A stretch of DNA of 64,000 nt from an uncultured Chloroflexia bacterium (GTDB taxonomy: Bacteria; Chloroflexota; Limnocylindria; QHBO01): the NCBI GenBank assembly GCA_963783725.1, contig CAWAOJ010000002.1, positions 1,789,279-1,853,278 on the forward strand, read 5' to 3'. The notes under the pieces are model-generated. The model saw only the letters and a program-made list of their open reading frames with translations, had not been told where the DNA came from and did not search any database. Below, piece by piece: positions 11,379 through 34,395 of the stretch (position 1 is the first letter of the stretch; each line of letters begins with the position of its first letter). Made by a program: the position numbers and the translations under genes.

Positions 11379-12749
<1,371 letters not shown>

Positions 12750-16487: not shown

Positions 16488-16573
16488 CTGACGGCGGTCG
16501 CCTCCGCGGCGACGCTCGGTGATGACCTCTGCTTCCACTGGGTTCTCCTCCTTGCGGTTGACCGATGCTGCCA

Positions 16574-17647
16574 TCAGCGGGTCTCCGGCAGCCGGAACAG
16601 GATCCGGGTGCCCTCGCCCTGGCGTGATTCGATCTGCAGCTGAGAGCCGAGCAGCTCAGCGCGCTCGCGCATGAACTGCAGCCCGAAATTGCGGCTGGCA
16701 CCGGATGCCAGTCGCATGACGTCGAAGCCGCGGCCGTTGTCGGCGATGGTGAGCTGGTCGCCCTCGAGGCAGATCCTCACCCGCGTCGCCGCGGCATGCT
16801 TCTTCACGTTCCGCAGCGCCTCCTGCACGATGCGCAGGACCGACGCCTTCTGCGACGGATCGAGGTGGTCGTCGATGCGCTCCACCTCCACGTCCACGTT
16901 GATGCCGTGGCGCGCCTCGAACTCGGCGGCCTGGTCGGCGATGGCGCGCGCCAGCCCCACGTCAACCGCGGGCGGGCGCAGCGAGCTGATGAAGCTGCGC
17001 ACCTCGTCCAGGCCGTCGCGCAGCATGGAGCGCAGGAATGCGACCTCCGACCGCGCCTCCGGCGCATCGGTCAGCATGCGGTCGATGTACTCGACCTGGA
17101 AGATCGCGTTGGTGAGCACCTGCGCGGGCCCGTCGTGGACCTCCTCGGCCAGCCGCTGCCGCTCGCCCTCCTGCGCGCCGATGATGCGCAGCTGGAGGGC
17201 GGCCGGCGACTGGTCCGCATCGGTCAGGCTCGGCTCGGGCGCCTGGGGGTCCGGGCTGTCGAGGTAGTTGCCGATCAGCTGCAGCTGGCGGCCGACGACG
17301 TCGAGCCGCTTGAGCTGGTTCTGCAGGGCGCTCAGCTCGCGACCGAGCTGGTCGTGCTCAGTGCGCAGCCCCTGCGTGGCGCTGCTCGTCGCTTCGGTGG
17401 ACGAGCGCTGATCGATCTGCGCGCGGAGGCCCATCCAGGTCGCCAGGCTGTCGCGGTACTGCTCGCGGTACCAGGTGGCCAGCTCCTCCATCCGCATCGC
17501 GGCCGCGCGCACGGTCTCGCTCGCCTGCTCGTACAGGCGCTCGAAGCTGCCGTTCGGACTACTCGTGGTGGGACCCGACACCGCGCGACCTCGCTGAGTA
17601 CTGGGCGCCGGCTGGTACTCGGCGCGCAGAACATGCTCGCGGCGCAT
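16574..17647 (-). CDS. Cytoplasmic NarX/LiaS-type sensor histidine kinase (HisKA_3 + HATPase_c)
   Basis: Starts at MRREHVLRAEYQ (ATG 17647). Coiled-coil region, HisKA_3 (GERQRLAEEVHDGPAQVLTNAIFQVEY), HATPase (DNGRGFD...GLQFMRERAELLGS). The 232 upstream residues in the raw ORF are Arg/Ala-rich with no domain support. No TM segments were recognised. Confidence 0.8.
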   Translation of the reverse strand: MRREHVLRAEYQPAPSTQRGRAVSGPTTSSPNGSFERLYEQASETVRAAAMRMEELATWYREQYRDSLATWMGLRAQIDQRSSTEATSSATQGLRTEHDQLGRELSALQNQLKRLDVVGRQLQLIGNYLDSPDPQAPEPSLTDADQSPAALQLRIIGAQEGERQRLAEEVHDGPAQVLTNAIFQVEYIDRMLTDAPEARSEVAFLRSMLRDGLDEVRSFISSLRPPAVDVGLARAIADQAAEFEARHGINVDVEVERIDDHLDPSQKASVLRIVQEALRNVKKHAAATRVRICLEGDQLTIADNGRGFDVMRLASGASRNFGLQFMRERAELLGSQLQIESRQGEGTRILFRLPETR

Positions 17648-17658
17648 TGTGCCGGCGA

Positions 17659-19299
17659 TCAACAGTACTTCGGGCCCCAAAGGTACCAGTGGCCCAGGAT
17701 CATCGAACCTCGAACACGCGCACGCCAGGAGCCTCGAAGGCGGGCGCGGCCGGAGAGGAACGAGGGATGGTTGCCCTCCGAATCGGTCGCGCTGGCGCCG
17801 TCCCACAGTCCCAGCGGATCTCGCGACTCGCCCGGGTTGAGCGTCACGAGCACCCACCGGATGCCGTAGGCCCTGACGACCCGCGCGACGGTCTGGTACG
17901 GGTCGAACGGCGGCGCCACCCCCGCTCGGCCGGTGAGCAGGTAGAGCCGCGCGGGGTCGTACGAGAGCACGCGGTCGGTGGCAGCCGCGTGCTGGGCCAG
18001 GAATGCGGCGCCGGCCTCGAGCCGCGTCTCCTGCTCGCGCCAGCCGACGAGAAGCGCCGCCGACCCGACCAGCGAGAGCACCACCGCGCCGGCCAGGCCC
18101 GCGACGAGCAGGAAGCGCTGCGCGCCGCGCCCGCCGAGGAAGCGCCAGTATCGGCCCGCCCAGTCGGCGGCCGGTCGCAGCGAGGCCACCGCCAGCGGGA
18201 ACGCGAAGGGCAGCCACGCCCAGGCGGAGTGATAGAAGGCGCCCATCGGTGCGTGGAAGGTGAAGACGAGGACCATGGCGCCGAGCATGACCCAGAAGTA
18301 GGCGAGGAACGGCGCGAGCTCGCGGCGGCGCCGCTCGCGCCACAGCCCGACGGCGAGGAAGACGACGAAGATGCCGCCCATCAGCACGGCGGTGCGTCCG
18401 GTGATCTCACCGAGGGCGACCAGCTTCGACCAGGCGATGGCGGGCAGCCCGGAGGCGAGGTAGCTCGCCGGCGACGGATCGGTGGCGATGGAGAACTGCT
18501 GGTTGTACGAGGTGATCCACAGCGTGTGGCCGCCGGCCGAGGGGAACGCCGAGCCGAAGACGGCGAGGTTGCGGGCGAGCCACGGCCCGACGGCGACGGC
18601 GAATGCCCCGGCGCTCGCCAGTCCCCAGCCGATGCGGGCAGCGCCGTCCCGCCAGCCCGACGCGAGCAGCCATCCGACCAGTGGCGCGACGGCGAGCAGC
18701 AGCCCGTCGACTCGCGCGAGCGTGGCGAGGCCGACCAACAGCCCGGATGCGGCGAGCCATGGACCGGGTCGTGGCGACCGGACGGCGCGGACAGCGGCGA
18801 GAATCGCGGCGGCGCCGGCGGCACCGAAGACGGCGAAGGCATCCACCATCGGCGCGTAGACGAGCATCGGCCCGGCGAAGAGGGCAAGGATGGCGCCCCC
18901 CAGCGCCACCGTGCGGCTCGCCCACAGCTCGCGGCCGACCTGGTAGGTGAGCAGGACGAGGCCCACCGAGAGGACGATCATCGGCGCCTGGCCGGCCAGC
19001 CACGACGGACCGAAGAGGAGCATCGATGCCGCCGCCACGACGGAGGTGAGCGGCATCCAGTGACCGTTCGAGGCGACCGGAAGCGTCGGATCGAGCGGGA
19101 GGCGGCCGCCCACCTCGAGGAAGCTCCACAGCACCGGCGTGCTGAAGCCGTGGCCGGCGGCGAGCTGCTGGGCAACGATGGTGTAGTAGGCGGGATCGGT
19201 GTACGGGGGGTGCCCGACCAGCAGCGCCGCGCCGGTGCGCAGGACGGTCGCCACGATCGCCAGCACGAGCAGATCTCGAACGATCGGGCGATTGCTCAC
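17659..19299 (-). CDS. GT39/ArnT-like polytopic membrane glycosyltransferase (PMT_2-like)
   Basis: GTG start at 19299 (VSNRPIVRDLLVLAIVATVL). Multiple TM helices with the DPAYYTIVAQQLAAGHGFS first loop and RVDGLLLAV motifs typical of PMT_2/ArnT-type large membrane glycosyltransferases. 547 aa. Confidence 0.65.
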   Translation of the reverse strand: MSNRPIVRDLLVLAIVATVLRTGAALLVGHPPYTDPAYYTIVAQQLAAGHGFSTPVLWSFLEVGGRLPLDPTLPVASNGHWMPLTSVVAAASMLLFGPSWLAGQAPMIVLSVGLVLLTYQVGRELWASRTVALGGAILALFAGPMLVYAPMVDAFAVFGAAGAAAILAAVRAVRSPRPGPWLAASGLLVGLATLARVDGLLLAVAPLVGWLLASGWRDGAARIGWGLASAGAFAVAVGPWLARNLAVFGSAFPSAGGHTLWITSYNQQFSIATDPSPASYLASGLPAIAWSKLVALGEITGRTAVLMGGIFVVFLAVGLWRERRRRELAPFLAYFWVMLGAMVLVFTFHAPMGAFYHSAWAWLPFAFPLAVASLRPAADWAGRYWRFLGGRGAQRFLLVAGLAGAVVLSLVGSAALLVGWREQETRLEAGAAFLAQHAAATDRVLSYDPARLYLLTGRAGVAPPFDPYQTVARVVRAYGIRWVLVTLNPGESRDPLGLWDGASATDSEGNHPSFLSGRARLRGSWRARVRGSMILGHWYLWGPKYC

Positions 19300-19329
19300 C
19301 GCCGCAGGGTACCCGGTAGACTCCGCCCG

Positions 19330-20796
19330 ATGTCCGAGCTCGAGCACCCGCGAGCCGTCCCGCGCTGGCTGCCGTCTCCGCTGGTGCTCATGCTCGTCGT
19401 GGCCGCGGTGATCCTCGCGCTGGTCGGGTTGGCGCACGGACTGACCGATGCGGACTACTTCTGGCACCTCACGGCCGGGCGTCTCATTGTCAATTCGGGC
19501 GCGGTCCCGACCGTCGATCCGTTCTCGTTCACCTACGCCGGACAGCCGTGGACGCCGCACGAGTGGCTGGGCGAAGTGCTGATCTACCTCAGCGTGACGG
19601 TGCTGGGGACGACGCTCACGCCCGTGGTCTTCGGTCTTGTCGCCGCGGCCGGCATCTCCGTCGCCGCGTTCACGGCGCAGCGGCTCGGCTCGCGAACCAT
19701 CGCAACCGGTGTCGCGGTCGCCGTCGGGACGCTCGTCGTCATCCCGTACGTCACCGTGCGCCCGCAGACGCTGTCGTGGCTCCTGCTGGCTGCGACTCTC
19801 GCTCTTCCTGCTGTCACTCGATGCCGCGCGACCACGGCGCGCCCTGCTGCTCATCCCGCTGTTCGTCGTGTGGGCAAATCTGCACGGTCTGTACGTCGTC
19901 GGGCTGGGCGTCGTCGTGCTGTACGCGCTGTGGACCCTTGCAGGGCGAACGCCAATGGCCCGCGCGCGCGGCTGGACGATCGCGGCCGCCGGGAGGCGCG
20001 GCGCTCGCGGCGATGGTCACGCCAGCCGGGCCCATGGGCCTGCTCTATCCGCTCCGGTACCTGGAGCCCGGCGACTGGGGCCTGGCCAACATCGTGGAGT
20101 GGCAATCACCCAACTTTCACGATCCCGCGAACATCGGGCTGCTCGATCCTCATCGTCGCACTCGTGGCGTTCGGTACGCGCGGCGTTCCGGGGTGGATGG
20201 CGGTGCTGTGCTGGCTGGGTGTCGTCATGAGCCTGCTCTCCGTCCGCAACGAGCCGATCGCCGCCATCTGGTCACTGCCCGTCATCGCGGCAAACGTCGA
20301 CCGACGCTTCCCCGCCAGCAGACGAAGCGGCGCTGAAATAGCCGCTCGGCGTGTCATGGAAACGGCCGCGGCGCTGGTCGTCGCCGTCGCAGCGATCGTC
20401 ATCATCGGCCCCCGCATCGGAACGCCGGCGCAGGCGCAGGCAGCCGCGAAGCTGCCGGTCATGGGTGTCGATCGACTGCTGCGAAACGGCGGAGCGGAGC
20501 GAGTCTTCGCGGAATACGGCTGGGGCGGGTACGTCATCTCGCGGCTGTACGACAGCGGTGGGCGCGTCTTCGTGGACGGTCGAAACGACATGTATCCGCA
20601 GGCGATCCTGGAGGACTACTCGCGTATCAGGAGCGCGCAGAGCGGTTGGGAGGCGCTGCTGGACCGCTATGGCGCCAGTGCGATCCTTCTGCCGCCCGAT
20701 GCACCCCTGGTCAGCGCGGCGGCTCGCTCAGGCTGGTGCGAGGACCTGCGGGACCAGCGCGAAGTGCTTCTCCTGAGGTGCTCGCCGGCGCAGTAA
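19330..20796 (+). CDS. Uncharacterised polytopic membrane protein, paralog of 41371..42867; at least 2 apparent frameshifts
   Basis: ATG at 19330 (MSELEHPRAVPRWLPSPLVLMLVVAAVILALVGL). Conserved blocks shared with 41371..42867: FTYAGQPWTPHEW, VVWANLHGLY, EYGWGGYVISRLYDSGGRVFVDGRNDMYPQ. The middle of the gene reads only when switching among three frames (ORFs 19637..20230 and 19548..20336). Confidence 0.5.
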   Translation: MSELEHPRAVPRWLPSPLVLMLVVAAVILALVGLAHGLTDADYFWHLTAGRLIVNSGAVPTVDPFSFTYAGQPWTPHEWLGEVLIYLSVTVLGTTLTPVVFGLVAAAGISVAAFTAQRLGSRTIATGVAVAVGTLVVIPYVTVRPQTLSWLLLAATLALPAVTRCRATTARPAAHPAVRRVGKSARSVRRRAGRRRAVRAVDPCRANANGPRARLDDRGRREARRSRRWSRQPGPWACSIRSGTWSPATGAWPTSWSGNHPTFTIPRTSGCSILIVALVAFGTRGVPGWMAVLCWLGVVMSLLSVRNEPIAAIWSLPVIAANVDRRFPASRRSGAEIAARRVMETAAALVVAVAAIVIIGPRIGTPAQAQAAAKLPVMGVDRLLRNGGAERVFAEYGWGGYVISRLYDSGGRVFVDGRNDMYPQAILEDYSRIRSAQSGWEALLDRYGASAILLPPDAPLVSAAARSGWCEDLRDQREVLLLRCSPAQ

Positions 20797-21613
20797 CTGC
20801 ACCTGCTCCGTCGGGGATGCCTCGCCACAGCGCGATGATGCCCACGAGCACGCTCGGTGCCGAGAACCACGGCACCGGAAGCGCCAGGAAACACGCGACG
20901 ATCACGGTCCAGCGCCAACCACGGAGCGCGCCGCCGACCACGATCGCGGCCGCGAGCATGAGTCGCACCCACAGCGGCCAGGTGATGGCAACCGCTGAGG
21001 CGGGAATGGGCACGCTGGAGTTGCGGCGCAGGCTGTCGGCCCACTCGAACCACAGATGCGGGGCCACGGCGAACGAGATGCCGGCGACGACAGCGGTCAT
21101 CGCGATTGCGAGCACCAGCGCCCGCCATTCGCGACGGACCGCAAACCACAGCACGCCGACGCCCGGCGTGACCTTGGTGAGCAGGTTGAACGCCCACGCC
21201 TGCGGGTAGCGGAAGCCGACGACGGCCGCCGCCGCGATCAGCAGGTGCAGGTTTCCGGTGCTGATCTCGTCGGACACCGGCGAACCGGGAAAGAGCAGAA
21301 GGATGACCCCGATGCGCGGGCCCGCCAGCCAGGCCAGCAGCGCCAGGTTCAGCGCCGACCACAAGCCGCGAAACGCCTCCCAGGGGAGGATTCCGAACGG
21401 CGCGAAGAGTTGGGCGAACGCCGGCGAGTACAGGTAGGCGTCGCGGCCGCCCACCGTGCCGCGCTCGTAGAGATGGGCGAAGTCGAAGCGCCAGTAGACG
21501 CGCGCGTCCTGCATGAAATCGCGTTGGTTGAAGTTGAGCCACAGCCAGGCGAACACGAATCCGGCCCAGGCGAGCATCAAGATCCCGGTGCGGAGCAGGC
21601 GCCGCCGCGTCAA
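20711..21613 (-). CDS. DUF2029/GT87-like polytopic glycosyltransferase (subfamily A)
   Basis: 300 aa with about 8 TM helices. Motifs AYLYSPAFAQ, GNLHLLIAAA and WFAVRREWRAL are shared with 47778..48710 and 51080..52099. The C-terminal 40 residues overlap the convergent gene and may be read-through. Confidence 0.6.
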   Translation of the reverse strand: MTRRRLLRTGILMLAWAGFVFAWLWLNFNQRDFMQDARVYWRFDFAHLYERGTVGGRDAYLYSPAFAQLFAPFGILPWEAFRGLWSALNLALLAWLAGPRIGVILLLFPGSPVSDEISTGNLHLLIAAAAVVGFRYPQAWAFNLLTKVTPGVGVLWFAVRREWRALVLAIAMTAVVAGISFAVAPHLWFEWADSLRRNSSVPIPASAVAITWPLWVRLMLAAAIVVGGALRGWRWTVIVACFLALPVPWFSAPSVLVGIIALWRGIPDGAGAVTAPASTSGEALRAGPAGPRTSLSEPPR

Positions 21614-21649
21614 GGGTCACGGCGCGCTCCAGTTCGGGCAGCGAGGCGG

Positions 21650-23876
21650 AGCGCCGATCAGCGACCACGGCCAGGGCTGCGGCCCTGGCAGATCGGTGCC
21701 TGGCGGCGGGTAGCTGCTCAGCGAATCCTCGCGGTACACGTGATCGCGCACCACGCTGAGCTGCTGCGGCCGGCTCGGACGGAGCTCTCCGAGGTAGCCA
21801 GTCAGCGCCGTGTAGCGCGCCTGATCGCAGCCGATCCGCGCGACGGCCTGCAGCGCGTGCAGCGTTGTCAGATCGTAGGGTGTCGCGCGCCTCCGCGGCC
21901 TCAGCCGCGGCCGCGTGCGTCGTCGGCGCGGCCGCGGTCTGCCAGCAGCACCGCGCGCCAGGGCGCGCCCATGTCGGACGAGAGCCGGTTGTCGGCGAGC
22001 GCCAGATCCGACCGTACCGCCGCTGGAAGCAGCGCCGCGCGCGGTCCGATCCGGGTGACGATCGCTTCAACCCGCGACCTCCACCGCCTGTCGCGGGTCC
22101 CCGCGCGGGACCGCGCGTGCGATCAGCTGGCGATCGATGGCAACCGCGATCGCGTACGCATGCGTGGCATCTGCCGTACGCCCCGCTGCAGTCCAGAGCG
22201 CCTGCCCCAGGAGAAGCGAATAACTCGGGTCGAGCACCGTCCGGCGGGCGGCCTCGGTCAGGAGACGGATGCGTTCCGCGCGGACGTTCGTCGGCATTGC
22301 CGGAGCGCGCCCCACGGCCGCGGATCGCCTGGGCTCAGCACGCGCGCCTTCTCGTAGGCGACTGCAGCGCCACCGACGTCGCCGGACTCGACTCGCGCCA
22401 ACCCGAGGCCGAGCCAGTAGCCGGCGTCAGCCGGGTAGGCGTCCGTGGCGGCGCCGAAGCCGGATGCAGCTGCCGTCCAGTCTCCACGCACCGCGGCCTG
22501 CCGCGCCTGATCGGCCGCGAAGCGTGCGCTGTCAATACCGACGACCGACGTGATCACCAGGAGGCCCGCGAGCGCCGAGCGCGGCCGGCATGAGGAGCGC
22601 CGCGAGCTCCCATCAGCCGTCTCGGAACGACGAACCGTTCCTGGAGCCCGGTCATCGGCGCCCGAGTCGGCCACGGCCCAGGCCGCCACCGTCACGACGA
22701 GCACCATCACGGCCGGCAGGGAGCTGAAGTCGTCGAAGCACGACGCCGCCGCGATGCCGACCAGCACGGCCGCCGCTGTGCGGCGGCGTGGATCGGCGAG
22801 ATGCGGTCGGACGGAGGCGGCGAGGACGACCCCGAGTGCGGCGGCTGCCGAGGCGAGGATGAGCCCGCCGTCCGCGATCGTCAGCAACGGGACGCTGTGC
22901 GCGAGCCGCACCTGTAATGGAAAGGTGTAGTCAGGGACCGTCGTCAGTCGAACCCACGAGTAGGTCGAGGGACCACTTCCGGTAATGGGGTGCGCTCGGA
23001 AGATCGCCAACGCCTCACGCCAGATCTCGCCTCGGCCGTCCAGCGCCGAATCGACGACCTGGCCGACGTGGAATGCGACGAAGACAGCAGCTCCGACAGC
23101 GCCGAGGCCGAGCAGCCCCGAGGGCGGGCACAAGCGCGCGTCTTCGCTGCAGCCAGGCGACGACGTTCGCGGGCCGAGGCCCAACCCGAGAAGGCGTCGT
23201 AGGCGACTGCCGCGGCGATCAGGCCGAGCCACCCGGCCCGACCGGCGGAGAGCGGGATCGCGATGGCGGACGCCCCAGCCCAGATCGCGACAAGGATCCG
23301 CCGCCCCGGCCCCGCCGGCTGCCAGCGCAGGAAGGGTATGGCGAGGAGCGAGAGGATCGGGAAGACGTTCGCGGTGCCCCAGATGAAGACCTGGTTCGAT
23401 TCGAGGTTTGGCACCGAGCCGAAGACCGATATCCACGCGATCTTCTCCTGGATCCACCAGACGGCGATCATCACCAACCAGAACACGAGCGCGTAGCTGG
23501 CGGCGACGGCGACGGCGGTGCGCAGTCGCTGGGCGGCGCCGAGGTCGCGCATCGCGAAGAAGGTGAGCGCGTATGCCAGCGCCAGCCCGACCGATTCGAG
23601 CGAACCCTGAACGTCGGCGCTGAACATCGAGACGAGGACCAAGGCGGCCAACCCAGCCAGGATCGCCCAGTCGAGCGCGTTTCGTGGCCCGCGCAGCCTG
23701 AGCGCGGCCCATATGACGAGCGGCGCGACGAACAGGAGCTGCGCCGCGATGCGCAGGGCGGGATAGGTCCCCAGCAGCTCGGAGCCGAAGAATCCGACGA
23801 AGAGCACGGTCCAGAGCTGGAGCGCCAGGACGAGGGCGATCATTCCTCGGCGACGGACGCCGGCAGCGGGGCACAG
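21650..23876 (-). CDS. Wzy_C (O-antigen ligase / PglL-type O-oligosaccharyltransferase-like) membrane protein with C-terminal TPR region; at least 2 apparent frameshifts
   Basis: TM N-terminus from MIALVLALQLWTVLFVGFFGS. Wzy_C core ...SAGRAGWLGLIAAAVAY then (frame switch near 23150) GRGEIWREALAIFRAHPITGSGPSTYSWV...AHSVPLLTIADGGLILAS. TPR-like tail (GDWTAAASGFGAATDAYPADAGYWLGLGLA...), which needs a further frame switch near 22300. The 3' limit is approximate. Confidence 0.55.
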
Positions 23877-23959
23877 GCGAGCTTCACACGCAGGCGGAGA
23901 TCCTCGCCAGCCACCGCCAGCGCCTCGAGCTCGACGCGCTCGCTGCCGTGACGACTCGG

Positions 23960-25700
23960 CCGCCGAGCCACCGCGGGCGACCAGGAGCGCCTCGTGATCG
24001 GTCGGGACCGGCTCCTCGCCGGGGCCGAACAATGTCTCCTCCAGCTTCTCGCCGGGCCGCAGCCCGGTGAAGGTGATCTGGATGTCCTTCGTGCCTCCCG
24101 GCACCGACAGGCGGATGAGGTCGCGCGCGAGGTCGACGATCCGCATCGGTTGGCCCATGTTCAGCACGTGGATGTCGCCCGGGCGGCCGACGGCGCCGGC
24201 AAGCAGGATCAGCCGCACCGCCTCGGGAATCGTCATGAAGTAGCGGGTCATGTCCGGATGCGTCACCGTGACGGGGCCGCCGTCTGCGATCTGCTGCCGG
24301 AAGAGCTCGAGGACCGACCCCTGCGAGCCCATCACGTTGCCGAAGCGGACGAGGACGAACCGCCCGGTGGCGCCGGCGCCGATCTCCTGCACCAGCAGCT
24401 CGCCCATGCGCTTGGTGGCGCCCATGACCGATGACGGGTCCACGGCCTTGTCGGTGCTGATGAAGATGAACGTCTCGGCGTCGTGCCTGGCCGATGCCTC
24501 GGCCACGAGCCGCGTGCCCCGCACGTTGGCGAGCACGGCGGCGCTCGACGTTCGCCTCGGACAGCGGGACGTGCTTCTGGGCCGCGGCGTGGAGGACGAC
24601 CGAGGGCCGTTCGGCTGCGAAGACGCGTTCGAGTGCCGGCTCGTCGGTCACGTCAGCCGAGCACGGCGACGATCTCGACGTCCGGGAAGCGGCGCCGCAG
24701 CTCCTCGTCGATGAAGAAGAGCGGCGTCTCGGCCCGCTCGTAGCAGCACGATGCGGCGCGCGCCCAGCGACGCGACCTGCCGGCACACCTCTGACCCGAT
24801 GCTGCCTCCCGCGCCGGTGACCAGCACGGTCCTGCCAGCGACCAGGCGGCGCATCGGCTCATCCGGAATGGCATGCGGCTCGCGGCGCAACAGGTCCTCG
24901 ACGCGGACCGGGCGGATCTTGTTGACGGTGACGCTCTGGTCGAGCAGCTCCTGGACGCCGGGGAGCGTGCGGACGGCCACGCCGGCGGCTTCGCACAGCG
25001 CGATGACTCTGCGCAGCCGGTCGCCGCCGACATGCGCGGCAGGGCGACGATCACCTCGCTCGACCTCGCGCTCCGCGACGATGCGTGGCAGGTCGTCGCC
25101 GGTCCCGGCCACCTCGATGCCATAGATGCGCTGGCCGCGCTTGCGCGGCGTCGTCGTCCAGGAAGGCAACCGGCTCCAGCCGCAGCGCGCCGGTTGCGCC
25201 GCATCTCGCGAACGAGCATGCGCGCCGGCCTCGCCCGCGCCGTAGATGAGCACCGGACGGGGCGGTCCGGCGAGCATCGGCCACCGCGCCATCGCAGACC
25301 TTCCTGGCGCACGCGCGAGGCGAACCGGATGCCGCCCAGCACCAGGACCGAGAGGATGAACTCGATGATGAGCGCGCTGCGCGGGAAACCCGACGGTGCC
25401 GGGGAAGAGCGGACGGCTGCACGACCACGAAGATGGCAAGGGCCATGACAACGGACCCCGCCGCCAGCGACGAGACCACGAGCGCCACGTCCGACACGGT
25501 CGGGTAGCGCCACACGCGCAGGTAGGCGCCGGCGAGCAGGAAGCCCGCCGGACGGACGATGGCCGCCAGCGGCACGAAGATCCAGTACGTCGCGACGGCC
25601 GCGAACAGGTTGTTGCGGTCGATGCGCAGCCCGACCGCCAGCGCCGCTGCGAGCGCCGGCCAGCGCGGCGTCGAGGAGCATCGGCGCCCCAGCGCGCGCG
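23960..25700 (-). CDS. PglF/WbpM/CapD-like membrane-anchored NDP-sugar 4,6-dehydratase; at least 3 apparent frameshifts
   Basis: N-terminal TM region (ORF 25051..25842). Rossmann VLIYGAGEAG and VLVTGAGGSIGSEVCRQ (ORF 24648..25790). DVTDEPALERVFAAERPSVVLHAAAQKHVPLSE (ORF 23884..24786). C-terminal CapD domain ANVRGTRLVAEASARHDAETFIFISTDKAVDP...GNVMGSQGSV (ORF 22944..24536). Confidence 0.65.
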
Positions 25701-25719
25701 ACGCCAGGCGTTCGCCCAG

Positions 25720-26365
25720 CGTGTATCGGCGCCGAGGGCGGTTCGACCGGCGCTCGGCCGCGCGCGAGGATGCCCGCGAACGTCTTCCACAGGAGGCCGA
25801 TGTCGCGGCGCAGCGAGTAATGGCGCACGTAGTCGAGGTCAAGCGCCAGCTTGGCGTGCATCAGCTCGCGCTGCGTAGACCTCGTCGGGGTCGCCGACCA
25901 GCCGCTCCTCCTCGTCGATATACGCGAGCTGGCTCGGTCCGGTGATGCCCGGGCGCACGCGAAGCACCTCGCGCTCCTCGTCGGTCCACTGCTCGACGTA
26001 CTTGCGGCGCCTCCGGTCGCGGCCCGACCAGCGACATCTGCCCGGCGATCGACGTTCAGGAGCTGCGGCAGCTCGTCGAGCTTCGTGCGGCGCAGCACGG
26101 CCCCGACCCGCGTCACGCGGTAGTCGTACGAGCCGGTGACGGCCGGCCCGACGCGGTCGGCGCCGCGCGCCATGGAGCGGAACTTCCACATCGTGAACTC
26201 GCGGCCGTTGCGGCCCACCCGCCGCGCCCCGTAGACGATCGGTCCGGAGGAGTCGAGCGTCACGGCGAGCGCCACCAGCGCCATGACGGGCAGGACGAGC
26301 ACGAGCGCAACGACGCCCAGAACGACGTCGATGAGGCGCTTCACAGCTGCCTGCCAGGCTTGCAT
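25720..26365 (-). CDS. PglC/WbaP-like polyprenyl-phosphate sugar phosphotransferase (bacterial sugar transferase domain); at least 2 apparent frameshifts
   Basis: KRLIDVVLGVVALVLVLPVMALVALAVTLDSSGPIVYGARRVGRNGREFTMWKFRSM...RTKLDELPQLLNV (ORF 24653..26446, from ATG 26365). RPGITGPSQLAYIDEE...DPDEVY (ORF 25839..26189). Back to LDLDYVRHYSLRRDIGLLWKTFAGIL. Confidence 0.6.
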
Positions 26366-26369
26366 GGGT

Positions 26370-27536
26370 CTAGACGTTGACCGGGTGCCGCGCGGCGTCG
26401 AGGATCTCGAGCAGCGTCGAGGCCACGCGGTCCACCTGCGCGTCACTCATCCCCGGCCAGATGGGCAGCGAGATCGACCGCTCGTAGAGCCGCTCGGCGT
26501 TCGGAAAGTCCCCGACTCGGTAGCCGTAGCGTTCCTGGTACAGCGGGTGAAGATGCAACGGGATGAAATGGACCGATGCGCCGATGCCCACCTCGCCCAG
26601 CGCGTCGATCACCGCTGCCCTATCGAGTCGCAGCGCCTCGAGCTCGAGCCGCACCACGTAGAGATGCCATGCGTGGCGGTCGCCGTCGCGGCGTGGCGGC
26701 AGCTGGACGAGTTCGGAACCAGCGAAGGCGGCGTCGTAGCGAGCCGCGATCGCGGCACGCGCATCGGCCAGCTCGTCGAGGCGCGAGAGCTGGACGAGCC
26801 CGATGGCCGCCGCCAAGTCGGTGAGGTTGTACTTGAAGCCGGGCTCGACGACCTCGTAGAACCACTTCCCGCCGGCGCCGTACCGGTTCCAGGCATCGGC
26901 GCTGATGCCGTGCAGCCGCATGATCGACGCCCGCTGCGGCGATGGCGTCGGAGTCGGTGACCAGCATTCCGCCCTCGCCGCCCGTCGTCATGGACTTGGT
27001 GGCGTAGAAGCTGAACGCGGCCGCGTCGCCCAGACGACCGGTGGGGACGCCGTTCACGGTCGCAGGCAGCGCGTGGGCCGCGTCCTCGACGAACCGCGCG
27101 CTCGGCGCGATTTCTCGCAGCGCGGCGACGTCCACGCCGAGGCCGGCGAAGTGCACGGGCATCACGGCGCGAACCGCATCGGTCAGGACCGCTTCCAGCT
27201 GCGCAGGACCCAGGAGGTAGTCGTCCCCGACGTCCGCCAGCCGCGGTCGCGCGCCCAGATAGGCGCAGACCTCTCCGCATGCGGTGAAGGTGTAGGTGGG
27301 GACGACGACCTCGTCGCCGGGACCGATGCCGACGGCCTCCAGCGCGAGGTGAAGCCCGGCGGTGGCGCTGTTGAGCGCGAGGGCATGCCGGATACCGATG
27401 CGCTCCGCGAACTTCGCCTCCAGCTCGTGCGCCTTCGCGCCGGTCGTCAGCCAGCCGGAGCGCAGCACGTCGACGGCGGCCGCGATCTCGCGGTCGCCGA
27501 TGGAGGGTCGATGGAACGGAATGGCGTCGGAGTTGG
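26370..27536 (-). CDS. DegT/DnrJ/EryC1/StrS (PglE-like) PLP-dependent sugar aminotransferase; apparent frameshift near 26920
   Basis: N-terminal two-thirds in ORF 26620..27747 (IPFHRPSIGDREIAAAVDVLRSGWLTTG...FSFYATKSMTTGEGG), with a possible TTG start at 27536. C-terminal third in ORF 26370..26921 (ADAWNRYGAGGKWFYEVVEPGFKYNLTD...). Confidence 0.75.
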
Positions 27537-27662
27537 TCTTCAATCTCGCTCGGCTCGGCGGCTCTCCGGCGTCGGGCTGGACGTGCGGCCGCAAGTCAAC
27601 AGTAGCCGAAACGAGCAATGCAGTGCGGAGCAGCAAGTTTGCACAGTCACGGGGCGCATTGG

Positions 27663-28406
27663 CTACACGGAACGACGTCGGAAGGCACGGGCGGACCGAA
27701 CGTCGGCCAAATACACCAAGTGGAACGGCCAGTGGCGTCCGCTCCACGACACCGCGAAGCCTGCCTCTCGGAGTAGCTGCTCCCCGAGGGACAAGTCGAA
27801 GACGTGGTGGTGCAAGAAGCGCGTTTCGACGTTCTTTTCGACTTGGGCCCTTAGTTCGTCTGCCGTCAGCGCCGATTCGGCCCGAGCATGGTCATAGAGT
27901 TGGATCGCTTCATCCACGTGTGTTTGATCGTCCTCCGTCATGCCCAGGTCGTGGCGGAGGTGATCCATCGTAGTAACTGGGCGGCGGCGGTCGAAGATCA
28001 GCCGACCATCTGGGATGACCATCACGAGTCTTCCAGAAGGACGCAGCACCCGTCGCCACTCGGTCAACGAGCCGAGCGGGTCCGCCAGGTGCTCGATGAC
28101 GTGCGAGGTCAGAACCGCGTCGTAACACCCATCTTCCATTGAGGATAACTGCGCCGCCTCGCCAATTAGCAATCGTCGGATGGGCACTTTGCGATCACTG
28201 CGATCCGTGTGGCGAATCTCCGTCCAAAGCGTGTCCTCGGCGTAATCCAGCAGATCGACCGATCGAAGCGCGTCATAGAGCGGCAACATCCCGCGTTCAG
28301 CGAAGACCTCACTTGGCCCGCCTATTTCCAGCGCAACCAAGTCACGGAACTGCTCGCGGGCGCCACCTGCTACCGGAAGTCGTGAGGGCCTGATGCGCTC
28401 AAGCAT
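27663..28406 (-). CDS. Class I SAM-dependent methyltransferase
   Basis: LEIGGP...HVIEHLADP...LRPSGRLVMVIPDG Rossmann-fold methyltransferase motifs. The raw ORF extends to 28520, but the likely start is MLERIRP. Confidence 0.65.
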   Translation of the reverse strand: MLERIRPSRLPVAGGAREQFRDLVALEIGGPSEVFAERGMLPLYDALRSVDLLDYAEDTLWTEIRHTDRSDRKVPIRRLLIGEAAQLSSMEDGCYDAVLTSHVIEHLADPLGSLTEWRRVLRPSGRLVMVIPDGRLIFDRRRPVTTMDHLRHDLGMTEDDQTHVDEAIQLYDHARAESALTADELRAQVEKNVETRFLHHHVFDLSLGEQLLREAGFAVSWSGRHWPFHLVYLADVRSARAFRRRSV

Positions 28407-28432
28407 GGCTCGCGCCGCCCACGCAGGGCCAC

Positions 28433-30007
28433 GTGAACGGAGCTTCAAGGCCCACCTTGCGACGGGCGCCCTGCGAGCGTGTCGCTGGCTCGAACAGTAC
28501 GGCGGTTCATGACGTGCCACAGCTAAGTTACCGTTCGCCCGTGTTGCAGTCCCCTGACGCTCACGCTCATCCCGAGGACGGAATTGGATCGCTGAAAGCG
28601 ACCGTCATCGTTGGCACCGGATCGATTGTGACGGTAGGACTCAGCGTCGTAACCGCCAAAGCGTACGCGGTGATCTTGGGCCCGGCGGGAGTGGGCTTGT
28701 ACGGCCTCATGCTGTCAGTGCTCAACCTTGGCGTGATAGTGGTCAGCGTTGGCATGGGGGTCAGTGTGGTCCAGGCGACAGCAGCGGCAGTTGCCGCGAA
28801 GGACTGGAGCCTCGTGCATGCCGTCCGGCGTACGGCACGCATTCTCGCTGTGATTGGTGGGGCGGTTGGCGGCGTGCTGCTGATCGGGCTCCGTGAGCCA
28901 ATAGCTAAGTTGGTGTTAGGCGACGCCACAAAGGATGGCGACGTCGTCATTCTGGCCGGGGCACTGCTTCTGACCGTTGCAGCCGGCGCCCAATTGGCTC
29001 TGCTGACAGGCCTGCACCGTGTCAAGGCGGTGACGCTAGTAAACGTGGCTTCGGCTCTTGTCTCGGCCGGCGCAGGAGTCGCTCTGGTCGCCCTTGTCGG
29101 CATTGCAGCGCTTGCTCCAGCACTGCTCCTGACGGCCGCCGTCCAAGCGGCCCTCTCCGTAGCTGTCAATCGCCGGTCAAGAGAAGCCGGCATCCCAAGC
29201 CCACGCGGCACAACGGCCATCCCCGGCGTCGTCGGCACGCTCGTCCGGAGGGGGGCTCGGATAGCTGCCAGCCAACTTGTCAGCACGGGCGTGCAACTGG
29301 GTGTCCCCGTCATGGTATTGCAGATGCTCGGCACGCAGGAAGTTGGTTACTATCGGGCAGCGGCGACCATTTCAGTCGGTTATCTGACCTTTTTTCTGGC
29401 CAGTTTGACGCAAGACTATCTCCCGAGGATTGCGGGGGCATCGGACAGCGGCGCCATGATTCTGCTCATCGATCGCCGGATGCGTCTTGTCATGAGTCTC
29501 GGCTTGCCGATCATCCTCGGACTCCTTGCGCTTGGTCCGTTGGCCATCCAGCTCCTGTACTCGTCCGCGTTCGCCCCAGCGCTCGATGTCCTTCAGTGGC
29601 AACTGGTCGGCGATATAGTCCGGCTGCCAGCGTGGGTTCTTGCATTCGTTCTGCTCACCGGCGACGGCGGGCCGTACTTTCGCGCGGAACTCACCGGCGG
29701 CATCGCGCTCGCGCTGGGCAGTATTCTGGGGCTAGCAACTCTGGGCCTGACTGGCGCAGGCGTAGGGTATGCGGCAGCCCAGGTCGCCTATTACGCGGTG
29801 CTGTGGATGCTGGTACGGCGCCGTCTTCCGCTGCGGCCGGGTCGTCTGCAGATGGGGCTTCTGCTGACGTCGGCCTTGTGCGCAGCCGTGTTGTTGCTCG
29901 ACGTTGCGACTGTTCCGCGGCTCGTCATCTTTGGCACAGCCACGCTTGCGCTGGCCGCCTACGCCTGGCCGCGCGCGTACCTCCTCCAGAGACGAGGTGA
30001 ACTGTGA
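28433..30007 (+). CDS. Wzx-type polysaccharide/oligosaccharide flippase (polysaccharide biosynthesis protein, MOP superfamily)
   Basis: 524-aa ORF with about 12-14 TM helices and the N-terminal SLKATVIVGTGSIVTVGLSVVTAKAYAVILGPAGVGLYGL typical of Wzx. The true start is probably an internal GTG around 28510-28545, because the first residues overlap the divergent methyltransferase. Confidence 0.75.
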   Translation: MNGASRPTLRRAPCERVAGSNSTAVHDVPQLSYRSPVLQSPDAHAHPEDGIGSLKATVIVGTGSIVTVGLSVVTAKAYAVILGPAGVGLYGLMLSVLNLGVIVVSVGMGVSVVQATAAAVAAKDWSLVHAVRRTARILAVIGGAVGGVLLIGLREPIAKLVLGDATKDGDVVILAGALLLTVAAGAQLALLTGLHRVKAVTLVNVASALVSAGAGVALVALVGIAALAPALLLTAAVQAALSVAVNRRSREAGIPSPRGTTAIPGVVGTLVRRGARIAASQLVSTGVQLGVPVMVLQMLGTQEVGYYRAAATISVGYLTFFLASLTQDYLPRIAGASDSGAMILLIDRRMRLVMSLGLPIILGLLALGPLAIQLLYSSAFAPALDVLQWQLVGDIVRLPAWVLAFVLLTGDGGPYFRAELTGGIALALGSILGLATLGLTGAGVGYAAAQVAYYAVLWMLVRRRLPLRPGRLQMGLLLTSALCAAVLLLDVATVPRLVIFGTATLALAAYAWPRAYLLQRRGEL

Positions 30008-30690
30008 ATGGCGCCACTCGAAAGCCCGAAGCCTATTACGAAGGCGCCCGTTCGGATCTGCTCGATTGGGCTGAGTCGACTGGCCGCCGGGTTCTGGAGA
30101 TCGGCTGTGGGGCCGGCGGCAACGCCCAATGGCTTCGCGGTCACGGGGCTGCGTGGATAGAAGGCGTCGAGCCGGACGTACCAAGCGCCGTGCGGGCCGC
30201 GACACGTTACGACCGCGTTCATCAGTCAACGGTAGAAGAAGCCTTTGATCGCATTGATGGCCCCTTTGACCTCATCATCTGCGCCGACGTGTTGGAGCAC
30301 CTGGTCGATCCTCTCGGCGTCCTCCGCGAACTTCGGTACAAGGCGGATCCGGCATCAGCATTGGTGATCTCAGTCCCAAACGTCCGTCATTACCGTGCCA
30401 TTGCGCGAATCGTCGCCGGTCATGGTTTTCGGCCTGAGGTTTCGGGCGTGTTTGATTCCACCCATCTTCGGTTCTTTACGAGGGCTAACCTTGCCGCGCT
30501 ACTGCTTCGCTCTGGCTGGAGACCCTTGCGATGGGGGTATCCGTCATATACGCGACTCGCCGTGATTCGCTCGATCTTGGGACGCCTGTCTGGCGGCGTG
30601 ACTGACGAGTGGCTAGCAGGGTCTTGGTTCGTCGTCGCGTTTCCGTCGACGCCGGTTAGGTTGGCCCGCTTGCCTCGAGTGGCTAGATAA
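30004..30690 (+). CDS. Class I SAM-dependent methyltransferase
   Basis: GTG start overlapping the flippase stop (GTGA). VLEIGCGAGGNAQWL...LIICADVLEHLVDP motifs. Confidence 0.75.
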   Translation: MNGATRKPEAYYEGARSDLLDWAESTGRRVLEIGCGAGGNAQWLRGHGAAWIEGVEPDVPSAVRAATRYDRVHQSTVEEAFDRIDGPFDLIICADVLEHLVDPLGVLRELRYKADPASALVISVPNVRHYRAIARIVAGHGFRPEVSGVFDSTHLRFFTRANLAALLLRSGWRPLRWGYPSYTRLAVIRSILGRLSGGVTDEWLAGSWFVVAFPSTPVRLARLPRVAR

Positions 30691-30786
30691 TCGGTGCCGT
30701 CTTGAGGCTTCAGTCTTGGCGGGATGCAGTCTGGGTTGTAGTTCCAGAGGTCTGCCGACGGCTTCCGGCTTTCGGGTGCGGCTTTC

Positions 30787-31722
30787 TCAGTAGGCGGGTG
30801 GTTGCCCCGAAATGGCTTTGAATGCCGTGCTCACGGCTTGGCCAAACATCGATGGCCGGCGAAGAGTCACACGGCTCGCGCGCGCGACCCAATAGGCGCC
30901 GATAAGGCCCTCAAACGCCACCCGCTGCACCGGGCCCAGGCGCGGACCGAAGTAACGACGCAGGCCCCAGGTGTAGTCGTGGTAGAGCCGTAGGCGCTCC
31001 AGCGGGTCCCTCGTTCCCACACCTGCGCCGGCGCGGAGGTGGATGCAGCGCACGTCATCGAACACGACGACTCGGCCCACACGATTCAGTCGGTCACACA
31101 ACTCCAGGTCGCTGACGAAGTTGAAATACGCCGCATCCAAGATGCAGCGCCCGGGGGCGGTGCGGCGGCTCAAGATGAAGGCGCCCGGCGGGTCCCAAAC
31201 CTGCGTCACGCCTTGGAACGACTCGTCCAGCATAAGAAAGCGGCGGCCGTGTCGCGTGTTGCGAAACAGCGGTTCGAACAGCAGAATCGGGAGGTCCTTC
31301 ATCGTCGGCAATCGCCGGTAGTAACGCTGCAGCTTGCCGTCGGGGCCAATCAGGTACGCGCTCAGCGCGGCCAGCTCTGGCTCCTCGCGCATATGGGCAA
31401 CCGCGCGCTCCAGTGCATGGGGCTCCAGCTGAGTGTCAGGGTTGAGCATGAGCACGAAGTCGCCCGTGGATCGCTCGAAGGCGAGATTGTTGCCGCCCGT
31501 GTAGGTCGTGTTCTTCTGTTGAGGCAACCATTGCACCCATGGATATGCGCCAGACAGCGATGTGGCATCGAAATCGGTCGAAGCGTTGTCGACGACGATC
31601 GTCTCCACGCGGTCAGCGATGCTACTGGCCGCCACTGAATCAAGGCAATCCCGCAGCAGAGGCGTCGAGTTGTAGTTGACGATGAGGATTGAGAGAACGG
31701 GGTGTCCGCTGTTACGCGCCAT
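30787..31722 (-). CDS. GT2 family glycosyltransferase
   Basis: LSILIVNYNSTPLLRDCLDSV...ETIVVDNAS...GGNNLAF GT-A fold motifs. Confidence 0.8.
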   Translation of the reverse strand: MARNSGHPVLSILIVNYNSTPLLRDCLDSVAASSIADRVETIVVDNASTDFDATSLSGAYPWVQWLPQQKNTTYTGGNNLAFERSTGDFVLMLNPDTQLEPHALERAVAHMREEPELAALSAYLIGPDGKLQRYYRRLPTMKDLPILLFEPLFRNTRHGRRFLMLDESFQGVTQVWDPPGAFILSRRTAPGRCILDAAYFNFVSDLELCDRLNRVGRVVVFDDVRCIHLRAGAGVGTRDPLERLRLYHDYTWGLRRYFGPRLGPVQRVAFEGLIGAYWVARASRVTLRRPSMFGQAVSTAFKAISGQPPAY

Positions 31723-31760
31723 CAGCCGTGTGCTCGTGGGCACGACATCGCAAGATACAC

Positions 31761-32693
31761 ACGATGACGACAGTCTCCGTTCTTGTTGTCTCGTACCGTA
31801 CTCCCGCGCTCGTCATGACCGCGGTCCAGACAGCGAGCCAACTCGCTTCAGTCACGGACGTGGTGGCAGTTGATAACGCTTCCGGTGACGATTCGGTCGA
31901 GTTGCTCAGGGCCGCTGGCGGGAATGTCCACGTGCTCGTGAACGACGCGAATCTGGGATTTGGCGCCGCGGCCAACCGGGCGGCAGCGGCAGCGACCGGT
32001 GACATCTTGATCTTCCTGAATTCGGACGCCGAGTTATCGCAATCTGCCGTTGCCACACTCGTCGAGGCGACGGGGCAACAGCGAGGATGGTGCATCGTGG
32101 GGCCCCGATTGGTCGGTCCAGCGGGTGGCGTCCAGCGCTCGGCCGGATTGCTGCCCCGTCCAGCGGACTTGGCAATTCGCGCGCTCGAATTCCACACCTT
32201 CGCCCTGATTCTTGGTCGAATTCCCCGGATCAGCGGTGTGTTGCAGCGGTCGCGACTGGCACGAGACTATGCAAGTGCTGTCAAAGCCGATGCGCCGATC
32301 GCCACCGATGTGGTCTCCGGTGCGTGCTTCGCGATCGGTAGAGAGGCCTTCAAAGAGCTCGGCGGGTTCGATGAGCGCTTCTTCATGTACTTCGAGGACG
32401 CGGATCTGTGTCGGCGAGCGTCGGCGGCCGGCATGCCTATCCGCTATGTCCCTGACGCGGTCGTGACCCACATCGGTGGCGCGAGCAGCTCGGAGGACTA
32501 CCACTTCGGCCCACTGCACGCGCGCTCGATGCGTCAGTACCTCGGGAAGTGGTACGGGCCGGCGGGATCGGCCTTGGCGATCGTGCTCCTCTGGCTGAGG
32601 GCACTCGGCTTGACCCTGGCACTGCGGCCTGCGGCGCGCCGAGCGTGGCGGGCCCTGTGGGCCGCTGTCACGGACGAGGATCAACGCCGGTGA
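31761..32693 (+). CDS. GT2 family glycosyltransferase
   Basis: VSVLVVSYRTPALVMTAVQ...VVAVDNASGD...GFGAAANR...FMYFEDADLCRR motifs. Divergent from the previous GT2. Confidence 0.8.
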   Translation, partial: TMTTVSVLVVSYRTPALVMTAVQTASQLASVTDVVAVDNASGDDSVELLRAAGGNVHVLVNDANLGFGAAANRAAAAATGDILIFLNSDAELSQSAVATLVEATGQQRGWCIVGPRLVGPAGGVQRSAGLLPRPADLAIRALEFHTFALILGRIPRISGVLQRSRLARDYASAVKADAPIATDVVSGACFAIGREAFKELGGFDERFFMYFEDADLCRRASAAGMPIRYVPDAVVTHIGGASSSEDYHFGPLHARSMRQYLGKWYGPAGSALAIVLLWLRALGLTLALRPAARRAWRALWAAVTDEDQRR

Positions 32694-33697: not shown

Positions 33698-34395
33698 AGA
33701 ACGATCGGGTTCACGACCTCGAGCAGATACGGCAGACGTATGGCCGGTATGCGAGAGAAGGCCGGTCGCGGCTGTGGGACGTGTCGAACCCTGGCTACGC
33801 GCGCATGATGCGTGATCGAGACGCCGCGCTGGTGACGCTGCTAAGAGAGGCCCTCGCGGAGGCGCGGGGCCGCGTTCTGGATCTCGGCTGCGGCGACGGG
33901 CGGCTGGCCGATCTTGCGCGCGCGGCCGGACTGCAAAGTCGCGGCTGGACAGGAGTCGATGTCGATGCCGCGAGTATCGCGACCGCGTCGACAGCGTGGC
34001 CGTGGGCGAGGTTCGTTGAAGCTTCGGCCGATCAGCTGCCCTTCGGGGACGCATCCTTCGATGTGATCGTGGCGACGACGCTGTTCTCGTCGCTGCCGTC
34101 GCGCGCAATGGAGGGAGCAGTGGCCAGCGAGATACGACGCGTGCTCTCGAGGAACGGCACACTGCTCTGGTACGACTTGCGCTATGACAATCCCGGGAAT
34201 GCGGCCGTGCATGGCCTCTCGGTGAGTCGCGTCTCAGAGCTGTTTCCTGGCTGGCTGGTCGATCTCAGGCCGCTCACGCTGCTGCCGCCTCTCTCACGCC
34301 GGCTGGGTCGGGCGACACCGGTCCTGTATCCAGCGCTGCACGCTCTCCGCATCCTGCGCTCACACCTGATCGGGCGTGTTCGTCCCAGCGGTTAG
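33695..34395 (+). CDS. Class I SAM-dependent methyltransferase
   Basis: GTG start overlapping the previous stop (GTGA). VLDLGCGDGRLADLA...FDVIVATTLFSSLP motifs. Confidence 0.7.

Follow-up and report, generated by a model that had tools for sequence, protein, structure and literature searches.

The characterised Wzy_C enzymes of monoderm bacteria are S-layer O-oligosaccharyltransferases (O-OTases), and one of them, WsfB of Paenibacillus alvei, combines the Wzy_C domain with a C-terminal tetratricopeptide repeat (TPR) domain (PMC2943079). The catalytic residues of this superfamily are two arginines and a histidine, R215, R288 and H338 in the ligase WaaL and R224, R298 and H349 in the O-OTase PglL; the PglL_A motif was built to separate PglL from WaaL, and pglL genes adjoin pilin genes in 21 of 31 cases (PMC3643930). 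Among the initiating enzymes, bifunctional phosphoglycosyl transferases (BiPGTs) are a known class (PMC11257628), into which a fusion of a phosphoglycosyl transferase (PGT) and a dehydratase fits. Here, we describe a four-gene operon that includes such a fusion and a Wzy_C protein with a TPR tail (Wzy_C-TPR), located near a Flp pilin gene in a 64-kb stretch of DNA from an uncultured bacterium of the class Limnocylindria. This whole stretch is referred to as the window, and its GC content is about 68%. The explanation that best accounts for the data as a whole is that of a conserved Limnocylindria envelope-glycan operon in which Wzy_C-TPR moves the glycan to an acceptor, and we hold it with moderate confidence. 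The outline of the pathway, a Wzx-dependent route with a PglF-type sugar at its start and a transferase of the WaaL/PglL superfamily at its end, is well supported.

The genes were delimited by comparison with a reference locus (L001), which is located on a 1.16-Mb contig (L001/L002) of a Chloroflexota metagenome-assembled genome (MAG; isolate MFD07737.bin.1.43) and carries the Wzy_C-TPR homologue P0003. The L001 proteins were aligned to the window with a frameshift-tolerant protein-to-DNA aligner written for this mapping, as the alignments of gapped tblastn crossed out-of-frame junk and this program was dropped. The gene content of the window was tiled completely over 17.6-43 kb, and frame-corrected proteins were scanned against Pfam at E<=0.01. 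The operon lies on the minus strand, and the third-codon-position GC also indicates minus-strand coding of 20.6-27.6 kb. The first gene (26370..27543) encodes a sugar aminotransferase of the DegT/DnrJ/EryC1 family of about 390 aa, with 85.4% identity to L001. It is followed by the fused gene (23840..26365, 84.9% identity), which encodes a PGT domain (Bac_transf), a module of four transmembrane (TM) helices with CoA_binding_3, and a PglF-like dehydratase domain (Polysacc_synt_2). The third gene (21617..23843, 66% identity) encodes Wzy_C-TPR, and the last (20619..21640, 75% identity) encodes a GT87-family membrane glycosyltransferase (GT) of the GT-C type, which depends on polyprenyl-phosphate sugars. 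The stop codon of the aminotransferase gene (TAG, 26372-26370) lies 4 nt ahead of the ATG of the PGT-dehydratase gene, and the stop codon of the latter is overlapped by the ATG of the Wzy_C-TPR gene (ATGA); by these two junctions, the operon genes are translationally coupled.

As written, none of the four operon genes has an intact open reading frame (ORF) in the window, and the match to every Pfam domain is scattered across at least two and up to many frames. Once corrected for frame, the proteins match Pfam from end to end: Polysacc_synt_2 over positions 1-291 of 293 (326 bits), Bac_transf over 1-178 of 179 (198 bits) and Wzy_C over 5-145 of 149 (45.7 bits), with the joined pieces also matching CoA_binding_3 and TPR_16. 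These features are therefore far beyond chance. The domains named in the initial annotation (DegT_DnrJ_EryC1, Bac_transf, CoA_binding_3 with Polysacc_synt_2, and Wzy_C with TPR_16) are present near the positions it gave, all on the minus strand, and the Wzy_C protein with a TPR tail is indeed encoded downstream of the other three functions (23843->21617). What it had listed as two enzymes, PglC at 25720..26365 and PglF at 23960..25700, is a single fused gene (26365->23840), orthologous to fusions of 825-860 aa. Such fusions are usual in this lineage, where they make up more than 110 homologue clusters; the L001 form has 843 aa and the intact form about 840 aa.

With regard to the sugar-nucleotide enzymes, the dehydratase domain is, judging from its sequence, clearly a PglF-like, retaining, membrane-anchored UDP-N-acetylglucosamine (UDP-GlcNAc) 4,6-dehydratase. 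Its best PDB match is Campylobacter jejuni PglF (5BJU) with 261 bits, compared with at most 131 bits for the CapD, FnlA/CapE and PseB types, which narrows the CapD/PglF type proposed in the initial annotation to PglF. In addition, the frame-corrected fused protein has full-length matches to CoA_binding_3 and Polysacc_synt_2, and the membrane/CoA_binding_3 module of PglF is present. The two other enzymes fit the proposed pathway less closely. The PGT domain has a monotopic Bac_transf core, as expected for a PglC-type enzyme, but its scores with WbaP and PglC are equal, at about 77 bits each, and favour neither sugar specificity. The aminotransferase belongs to the DegT family, as had been proposed, but it is closer to ArnB than to PglE: its best PDB matches are ArnB-type UDP-4-keto-sugar aminotransferases (275 bits), PglE is not among its top 40 PDB matches, and it matches the PseC/ArnB NCBIfam models below their cut-offs, with no equivalog cut-off reached. 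The reported lack of a PglD-like enzyme was confirmed, as the complete tiling of 17.6-43 kb revealed no hexapeptide acetyltransferase; a Hexapep gene lies at one edge of the L001 glycan island.

It is likely that the operon makes a lipid-linked glycan beginning with a 4-amino-4,6-dideoxy-N-acetylhexosamine (HexNAc) derivative. The dehydratase domain, given its PglF-level similarity, would convert UDP-GlcNAc to the UDP-4-keto-6-deoxy sugar, which the DegT enzyme would aminate at C4 to yield a UDP-4-amino-4,6-dideoxy-HexNAc of the bacillosamine or AAT/FucNAc4N type. The product might keep a free amine, because no acetyltransferase is encoded in the window. The N-terminal PGT domain of the dehydratase polypeptide would then put the sugar-1-phosphate on polyprenyl phosphate. 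From the gene content, strain-variable GT2 enzymes and methyltransferases could extend the glycan and Wzx could flip it, after which Wzy_C-TPR would pass it en bloc from the lipid carrier to an extracytoplasmic acceptor. The most probable acceptor would be a secreted or surface protein, with the neighbouring Flp as the leading candidate, and the neighbouring GT-C enzymes (GT87 and PMT_2-like) could attach additional sugars extracellularly.

The intact Wzy_C-TPR comprises about 730-740 aa, and a search with the joined protein yielded 49 full-length homologues of 713-751 aa, with 34-63% identity. The Wzy_C domain (PF04932) scores 45.7 bits in the frame-corrected protein, against a cut-off of 31.7, and is present in all 49 homologues. 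The AlphaFold2 model of the L001 protein has a pLDDT of 91.9 and a pTM of 0.91, and the only membrane fold match of Wzy_C-TPR is the WaaL of Cupriavidus metallidurans (PDB 7TPG/7TPJ; 15% identity). A profile search of the PDB with the whole family was dominated by TPR proteins. Based on hydropathy, loop charge and homology to WaaL, 13 TM helices are predicted, the thirteenth of which carries the C-terminal TPR domain, of about 310 aa, to its predicted extracytoplasmic location. Three residues, R202, R270 and H315, are invariant in 45 of 45 sequences, are kept in the window and are predicted to face outwards. They are spaced by 68 and 45 residues, which agrees with the spacing of the catalytic residues in WaaL and PglL (74 and 51 in the latter), and their equivalence to the PglL residues is based on this spacing, on the topology and on the Pfam alignment rather than on a direct alignment with PglL. 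The TPR domain also holds two cysteines, C662 and C733, which are the only ones invariant across the family (45/45).

The Wzy_C-TPR family is restricted to Candidatus Limnocylindria and Chloroflexota MAGs. In L001, the four operon genes are all intact and encode, in this order, DegT (376 aa), the 843-aa Bac_transf, CoA_binding_3 and Polysacc_synt_2 protein, Wzy_C-TPR (739 aa) and GT87 (338 aa). The locus, likewise free of broken genes, continues with a 484-aa membrane protein on the opposite strand, a 534-aa PMT_2-like GT-C enzyme, a HisKA_3 kinase, a response regulator, Flp, RcpC, CpaE and CpaF. The same gene order is found in L003, L004, L005, L012, L014, L016, L019 and L021, with Wzy_C identities down to 36%, and GT87 follows Wzy_C-TPR in nearly all relatives. 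Some of the taxonomic labels of these sequences appear to be misplaced. L004 (JAICUY010000011.1) is labelled as a Steroidobacteraceae bacterium, yet it contains the whole Limnocylindria block with 72-96% protein identity to L001 and is probably mis-binned; the labels Rhizobiales and Actinobacteria on the fused PGT-dehydratases P0067 and P0161 look similarly wrong.

Upstream of this conserved block, the window carries a variable glycan-tailoring island (27663..36084, mixed strands), delimited from Pfam matches and the GC profile. It comprises a methyltransferase, the Wzx flippase (28433..30007, plus strand), a second methyltransferase, three GT2 enzymes, a third methyltransferase and a PMT_2-like GT-C enzyme (34564..36084, minus strand), so that the flippase, GT2 genes and methyltransferases previously noted alongside the operon are all seen by Pfam. 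The island is not conserved in L001, and no tblastn match to the window was obtained with the L001 island genes; L001 has instead Hexapep, GT4, Wzx, GT4 and an asparagine-synthase homologue.

We consider Wzy_C-TPR somewhat more likely to be a ligase or OTase than a polymerase, because it is conserved beside the initiating enzymes while the GT island varies, because no Wzz/PCP protein accompanies it, and because its structural match is a ligase. The conservation of the enzyme together with the initiating genes, next to a variable GT island, is as expected for a ligase recognising the reducing-end sugar. An unlikely alternative, although the most probable of the rival readings, is that Wzy_C-TPR is a Wzy-type polymerase of a wall or extracellular polysaccharide, with the TPR domain as a scaffold and the proximity of Flp being incidental. 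The Pfam Wzy_C family includes polymerases as well as ligases, TPR domains are found in polysaccharide export and secretion scaffolds, and the region abounds in GT-C enzymes of the kind associated with complex wall glycans, among them about six GT87 paralogues. A polymerase role also keeps part of its probability because neither a second Wzy candidate nor any other Wzy-like protein was seen in the tiled 17.6-43 kb. However, polymerases normally co-vary with their repeat unit, whereas Wzy_C-TPR is conserved over its full length with 36-63% identity although the GT island varies from one relative to another, as judged from the window and the loci fetched. Moreover, no Wzz/GNVR/PCP chain-length regulator and no LCP ligase were found in the window, and the sole structural match is the ligase WaaL.

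If Wzy_C-TPR is a ligase, its acceptor could also be a molecule other than a protein, such as a glycolipid anchor, peptidoglycan or a secondary cell-wall polymer, which would make it a monoderm analogue of WaaL. The WaaL-like fold, the conserved Arg/Arg/His set and the absence of the PglL_A motif are compatible with this role. The GT87 and PMT_2-type enzymes, which are families known from mycobacterial lipoglycan assembly, are numerous nearby and could point to a wall lipoglycan. We nevertheless regard this possibility as improbable, since the ligation of wall polymers in monoderms is normally performed by LCP enzymes, the characterised Wzy_C enzymes of monoderms are S-layer protein O-OTases, one of them with a TPR domain (PMC2943079), and Flp lies within the glycan cluster in one relative (L022, see below). 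A conventional WaaL role, which had been put forward as the context that would refute protein glycosylation, is unlikely, because the window lacks lipopolysaccharide (LPS) genes and a secretin is missing from the Tad locus. The ORFs of the 64-kb window include no waa, lpx or core genes, and neither does L001. To our knowledge, Chloroflexota lack LPS.

A protein is the acceptor that we favour, although tentatively and at somewhat less than an even chance, because monoderm Wzy_C enzymes are S-layer O-OTases, pglL genes are often located beside pilin genes, and Flp, whose surface-exposed C-terminus is conserved, stays by the block across the class. The proposed proximity of Flp to the glycan genes was borne out and is stronger than initially described, as no more than about 6 kb separates Flp from the glycan block in eight or more relatives with Wzy_C identities of 36-61%. 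In L022, the flp gene (5870-6154) lies inside the glycan cluster (3924-7462), between a FkbM-type methyltransferase gene and the DegT gene, in the same orientation and directly upstream of the latter; no Tad assembly genes were found in the 22 kb fetched of this locus. Flp itself is a doubtful acceptor, even though it is the leading candidate. An O-OTase reading of Wzy_C-TPR is plausible. A more specific version, in which the Limnocylindria Wzy_C-TPR proteins form an uncharacterised O-OTase clade whose TPR domain captures Flp, and perhaps further surface proteins, and whose glycan begins with a free-amino 4-amino-4,6-dideoxy-HexNAc from the fused PGT-dehydratase, is a speculative extension with a low probability.

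Several results weigh against protein glycosylation by this enzyme. The sequence of the membrane domain gave no match in the PDB at E<=10. The profile comparison proposed in the initial annotation to distinguish WaaL from PglL gave no PglL signal, as PglL_A (PF15864) was unmatched in the Pfam scan, where Wzy_C and TPR_16 alone were listed. This absence is compatible with O-OTase activity, because the motif was defined on Proteobacteria and PilO also has no such motif. No glycan density is visible on the best-studied Tad pilus, that of Caulobacter (PMC10710030), and synteny within a single class may stem from common descent rather than function. O-linked protein glycosylation, with Flp as its target, is a reasonable hypothesis.

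The flp gene of the window (15239..15434, minus strand) encodes a type IVc (Tad) prepilin with 85-91% identity to the L001 Flp. The conserved C-terminus (NVGT[ST]L in all relatives) is present as NVGTSLQD, but the ORF extends 50 codons beyond it, as the stop is lost; the gene is otherwise intact. This loss probably results from one extra G at 15242, ahead of an in-frame TAA. A GC-rich, terminator-like hairpin (GAGGAGGGCCC...GGGCCCTCCTT) is located 3' of flp at 15180-15215 on the minus strand. Further downstream, the Tad assembly genes (11379..15011, minus strand) were identified by alignment with L001 and encode RcpC (15011->14127), CpaE (14089->12851) and the ATPase CpaF (12749->11379, with a T2SSE Pfam match). 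No secretin gene (RcpA/CpaC) is present between RcpC and CpaE in the window (12851-15011) or in L001 (19296-21429). This succession of RcpC and CpaE without a secretin is the monoderm-type Tad layout, and the host is a probable monoderm.

The initial annotation had treated the genes as intact, but all of the operon genes are interrupted relative to their intact orthologues. The aminotransferase gene has one frameshift, an extra base near 26934, which divides the DegT profile between ORFs 26620..27747 (positions 2-193) and 26370..26921 (positions 198-359). The PGT-dehydratase gene has 19 single-base frameshifts, 17 of which are an extra base, over an alignment of 839 aa, and its Polysacc_synt_2 profile is divided among three ORFs (positions 1-30, 57-98 and 103-291). 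Neither gene has an in-frame stop. The Wzy_C-TPR gene has about nine frame changes, and the GT87 gene has one or two (~21611 and ~20811), its C-terminus being in another frame. In a three-frame view, the conserved peptide switches frame many times, and the N-terminal membrane half of Wzy_C-TPR shares its frame with the C-terminus of the dehydratase, without an intervening stop. The deposited protein P0027 (530 aa, 22944-24536, minus strand), which is 100% identical to the joined Wzy_C-TPR protein, is a chimera of these two segments, because of the frameshifts and of the loss of the ATGA stop/start junction. Outside the operon, rcpC has 11 single-base frameshifts in 0.9 kb (14127-15011; four extra and seven missing bases; 73% identity to L001), while the adjoining cpaE has none (82.7% identity) and cpaF is intact. 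In total, the operon has some 30 frameshifts and the stretch 12.8-27.6 kb about 45, and larger deletions are almost lacking.

Aligned as DNA, the indels stand alone as single bases, outside homopolymers, and most of them are insertions. The shifts are patchy, with none in the 2.8 kb of cpaE, the kinase and the regulator, compared with a mean of 3.3 per kb (Poisson P ~1e-4). All 40 invariant positions of the family, and 65 of its 68 near-invariant ones, are retained in the frame-corrected Wzy_C-TPR, and the identity of the broken genes to L001 is at least as high as that of their unbroken neighbours and of the intact orthologues of other relatives. Short-read MAGs (k127, k141 and NODE contigs) have zero to one apparent shift per gene. 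Similar indel clusters are observed in other genes of the Nanopore-only MFD MAGs: hyp534 of L021 (4173-5766) has 15 shifts, L022 has split DegT, PGT-dehydratase and Wzy_C genes (6337-12134), and L016 has split PGT-dehydratase, GT87 and kinase genes (131-5618). The MFD long-read MAGs were assembled from Nanopore reads only, with Flye and one round of Medaka, and without short-read polishing (PMC12313526). The frameshifts are thus almost certainly consensus errors of the assembly and not signs of pseudogenisation, because they are isolated single bases that occur in patches, recur in Nanopore-only MAGs and are absent from short-read MAGs, and because the genes have no in-frame stops and no excess divergence, with all invariant residues of the Wzy_C-TPR family retained.

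Some points tell against this interpretation. That the window derives from a long-read assembly is something that we infer. A genome scan with the C-terminal Wzy_C fragment of the window gave 588 pattern matches and no relatives, which places the source genome outside the GTDB representatives. Two metagenome scans for an intact same-species copy gave no match to the Wzy_C N-terminus and at most 77-78% identity for the dehydratase segment, and L001 remained the closest relative when the reconstructions were compared by blastp with all fetched proteins. The opposite view, in which the frameshifts are real and the glycan operon, rcpC and hyp484 are pseudogenes of a dead system, accounts for the absence of intact ORFs as written but is very improbable, as neutral decay yielding 19 indels in one gene should leave many substitutions and stops, whereas there are 839 codons without an in-frame stop, some 45 indels of one base and hardly any larger deletions, no excess amino-acid divergence, and the same patchiness in different genes of Nanopore-only MAGs but not in short-read MAGs.

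Other causes of the indels were also considered. Homopolymer slippage was rejected, as the extra bases are isolated in an ordinary GC-rich context, and a GC-driven error is unsupported, as the rcpC patch sits in a stretch of 66% GC. Programmed frameshifting or transcriptional slippage was rejected in view of the 19 bidirectional shifts in one gene and of the lack of slippery tracts. A comparison of the paralogue at 43.7-45.3 kb for indels was too weak to read, with 25% identity only.

Between the operon and the pilin gene, three further features keep their position in L001. The first is hyp484 (19330..20784, plus strand), a polytopic membrane protein in divergent orientation, without a Pfam match, which has 71% identity to the 484-aa protein of L001 and whose position is kept in relatives. 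Its gene has three +1 shifts (19795, 19994 and 20145), which restore the original frame; the deposited long ORF 17647..20796 conceals about 120 residues of out-of-frame junk in this region. The second is hyp534 (17703..19299, minus strand), a PMT_2-family GT-C glycosyltransferase and member of the conserved block, with 60% identity to L001 and zero to one shift; its L001 orthologue matches PMT_2 at 28 bits (cut-off 26.1). The third (15801..17434, minus strand) comprises a HisKA_3 histidine kinase and a GerE-type response regulator, with 75% and 94% identity to L001 and no frameshifts, the families being assigned by Pfam on the L001 orthologues.

On the other side of the operon, the segment 28000-40000 has a GC content of 62-65%, compared with 68-72% in its flanks, and is scored as non-coding by a host-trained codon model, though it is fully tiled with genes. 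The segment may thus be a glycan island that varies between strains and is exchanged horizontally. It includes a 753-aa fusion of an MFS transporter and a spermine/spermidine-synthase-like domain (36102-38363, plus strand). About six GT87-like paralogues (38364-39431, 40520-41386, 42839-43783, 47778-48710, 50142-51053 and 51161-51853) occur together with two or three 484-aa-type membrane protein paralogues (including 41371-42867 and 43937-44737), and a 35-kb region is thereby unusually dense in envelope glycosyltransferases of the GT-C type. The GT87-like copy at 42839-43783 seemingly has one +1 shift near 43392.

In practical terms, the frameshifts carry the main lesson. Dense patches of single-base indels, here and in Nanopore-only MAGs, turn genes under selection into apparent pseudogenes or chimeric ORFs, and the gene calls, pseudogene counts and domain architectures obtained from such patches should not be taken at face value. 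If Wzy_C-TPR is an O-OTase, the operon would represent a conserved protein glycosylation system tied to Tad pili in an abundant uncultured class of soil and freshwater bacteria, and its unusual fused initiating enzyme and TPR-bearing transferase could be of interest to glycoengineers. If, in addition, the clade targets Flp, it would provide the first example of a glycosylation system dedicated to the Flp pilin, and the first from Chloroflexota.

Compared with the Pgl system of C. jejuni (PglF, PglE, PglD and PglC), the operon shares the PglF-like dehydratase with its N-terminal 4-TM/CoA_binding_3 module, a DegT aminotransferase and a PglC-type PGT catalytic domain. It differs in that PGT and dehydratase are joined in one polypeptide, with the PGT at the N-terminus, in that the aminotransferase resembles ArnB more closely than PglE, and in that PglD is absent from the window; moreover, C. 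jejuni uses the N-OTase PglB, whereas the transferase is of the O type (Wzy_C) here. With WaaL (7TPG/7TPJ), Wzy_C-TPR shares its fold, at 15% identity and without a sequence-level match, but the TPR domain is additional, the locus has no lipid A-core/LPS context, and the Tad genes have no secretin. The resemblance to the O-OTases PglL and PilO (TfpO) of Neisseria, Acinetobacter, Burkholderia and Pseudomonas extends to the Wzy_C domain, the Arg/Arg/His spacing, a non-LPS locus with a pilin gene nearby, and a dehydratase, aminotransferase and PGT set upstream. In contrast with PglL, Wzy_C-TPR has no detected PglL_A motif, and it has a thirteenth TM helix and a 310-aa external TPR domain; the candidate pilin is a 40-residue Flp (type IVc) rather than a type IVa pilin, and the host is a probable monoderm.

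The S-layer O-OTases WsfB, WsaB and WsaA of P. alvei and Geobacillus stearothermophilus belong to a different setting in some respects. Their pathway starts with a Gal-1-P transferase, instead of the PglF-like dehydratase::PGT fusion and aminotransferase found here, the Geobacillus flippase is an ABC transporter instead of Wzx, and the window shows neither an S-layer nor an SLH gene. Nevertheless, both systems have a monoderm host (a probable one here) and a glycan cluster with a PGT, GTs and methyltransferases, and an asparagine-synthase homologue is present in both the P. alvei locus and L001 (PMC2943079). At the level of domain description, WsfB and the Limnocylindria protein also share the same architecture, a Wzy_C domain followed by a C-terminal TPR domain.

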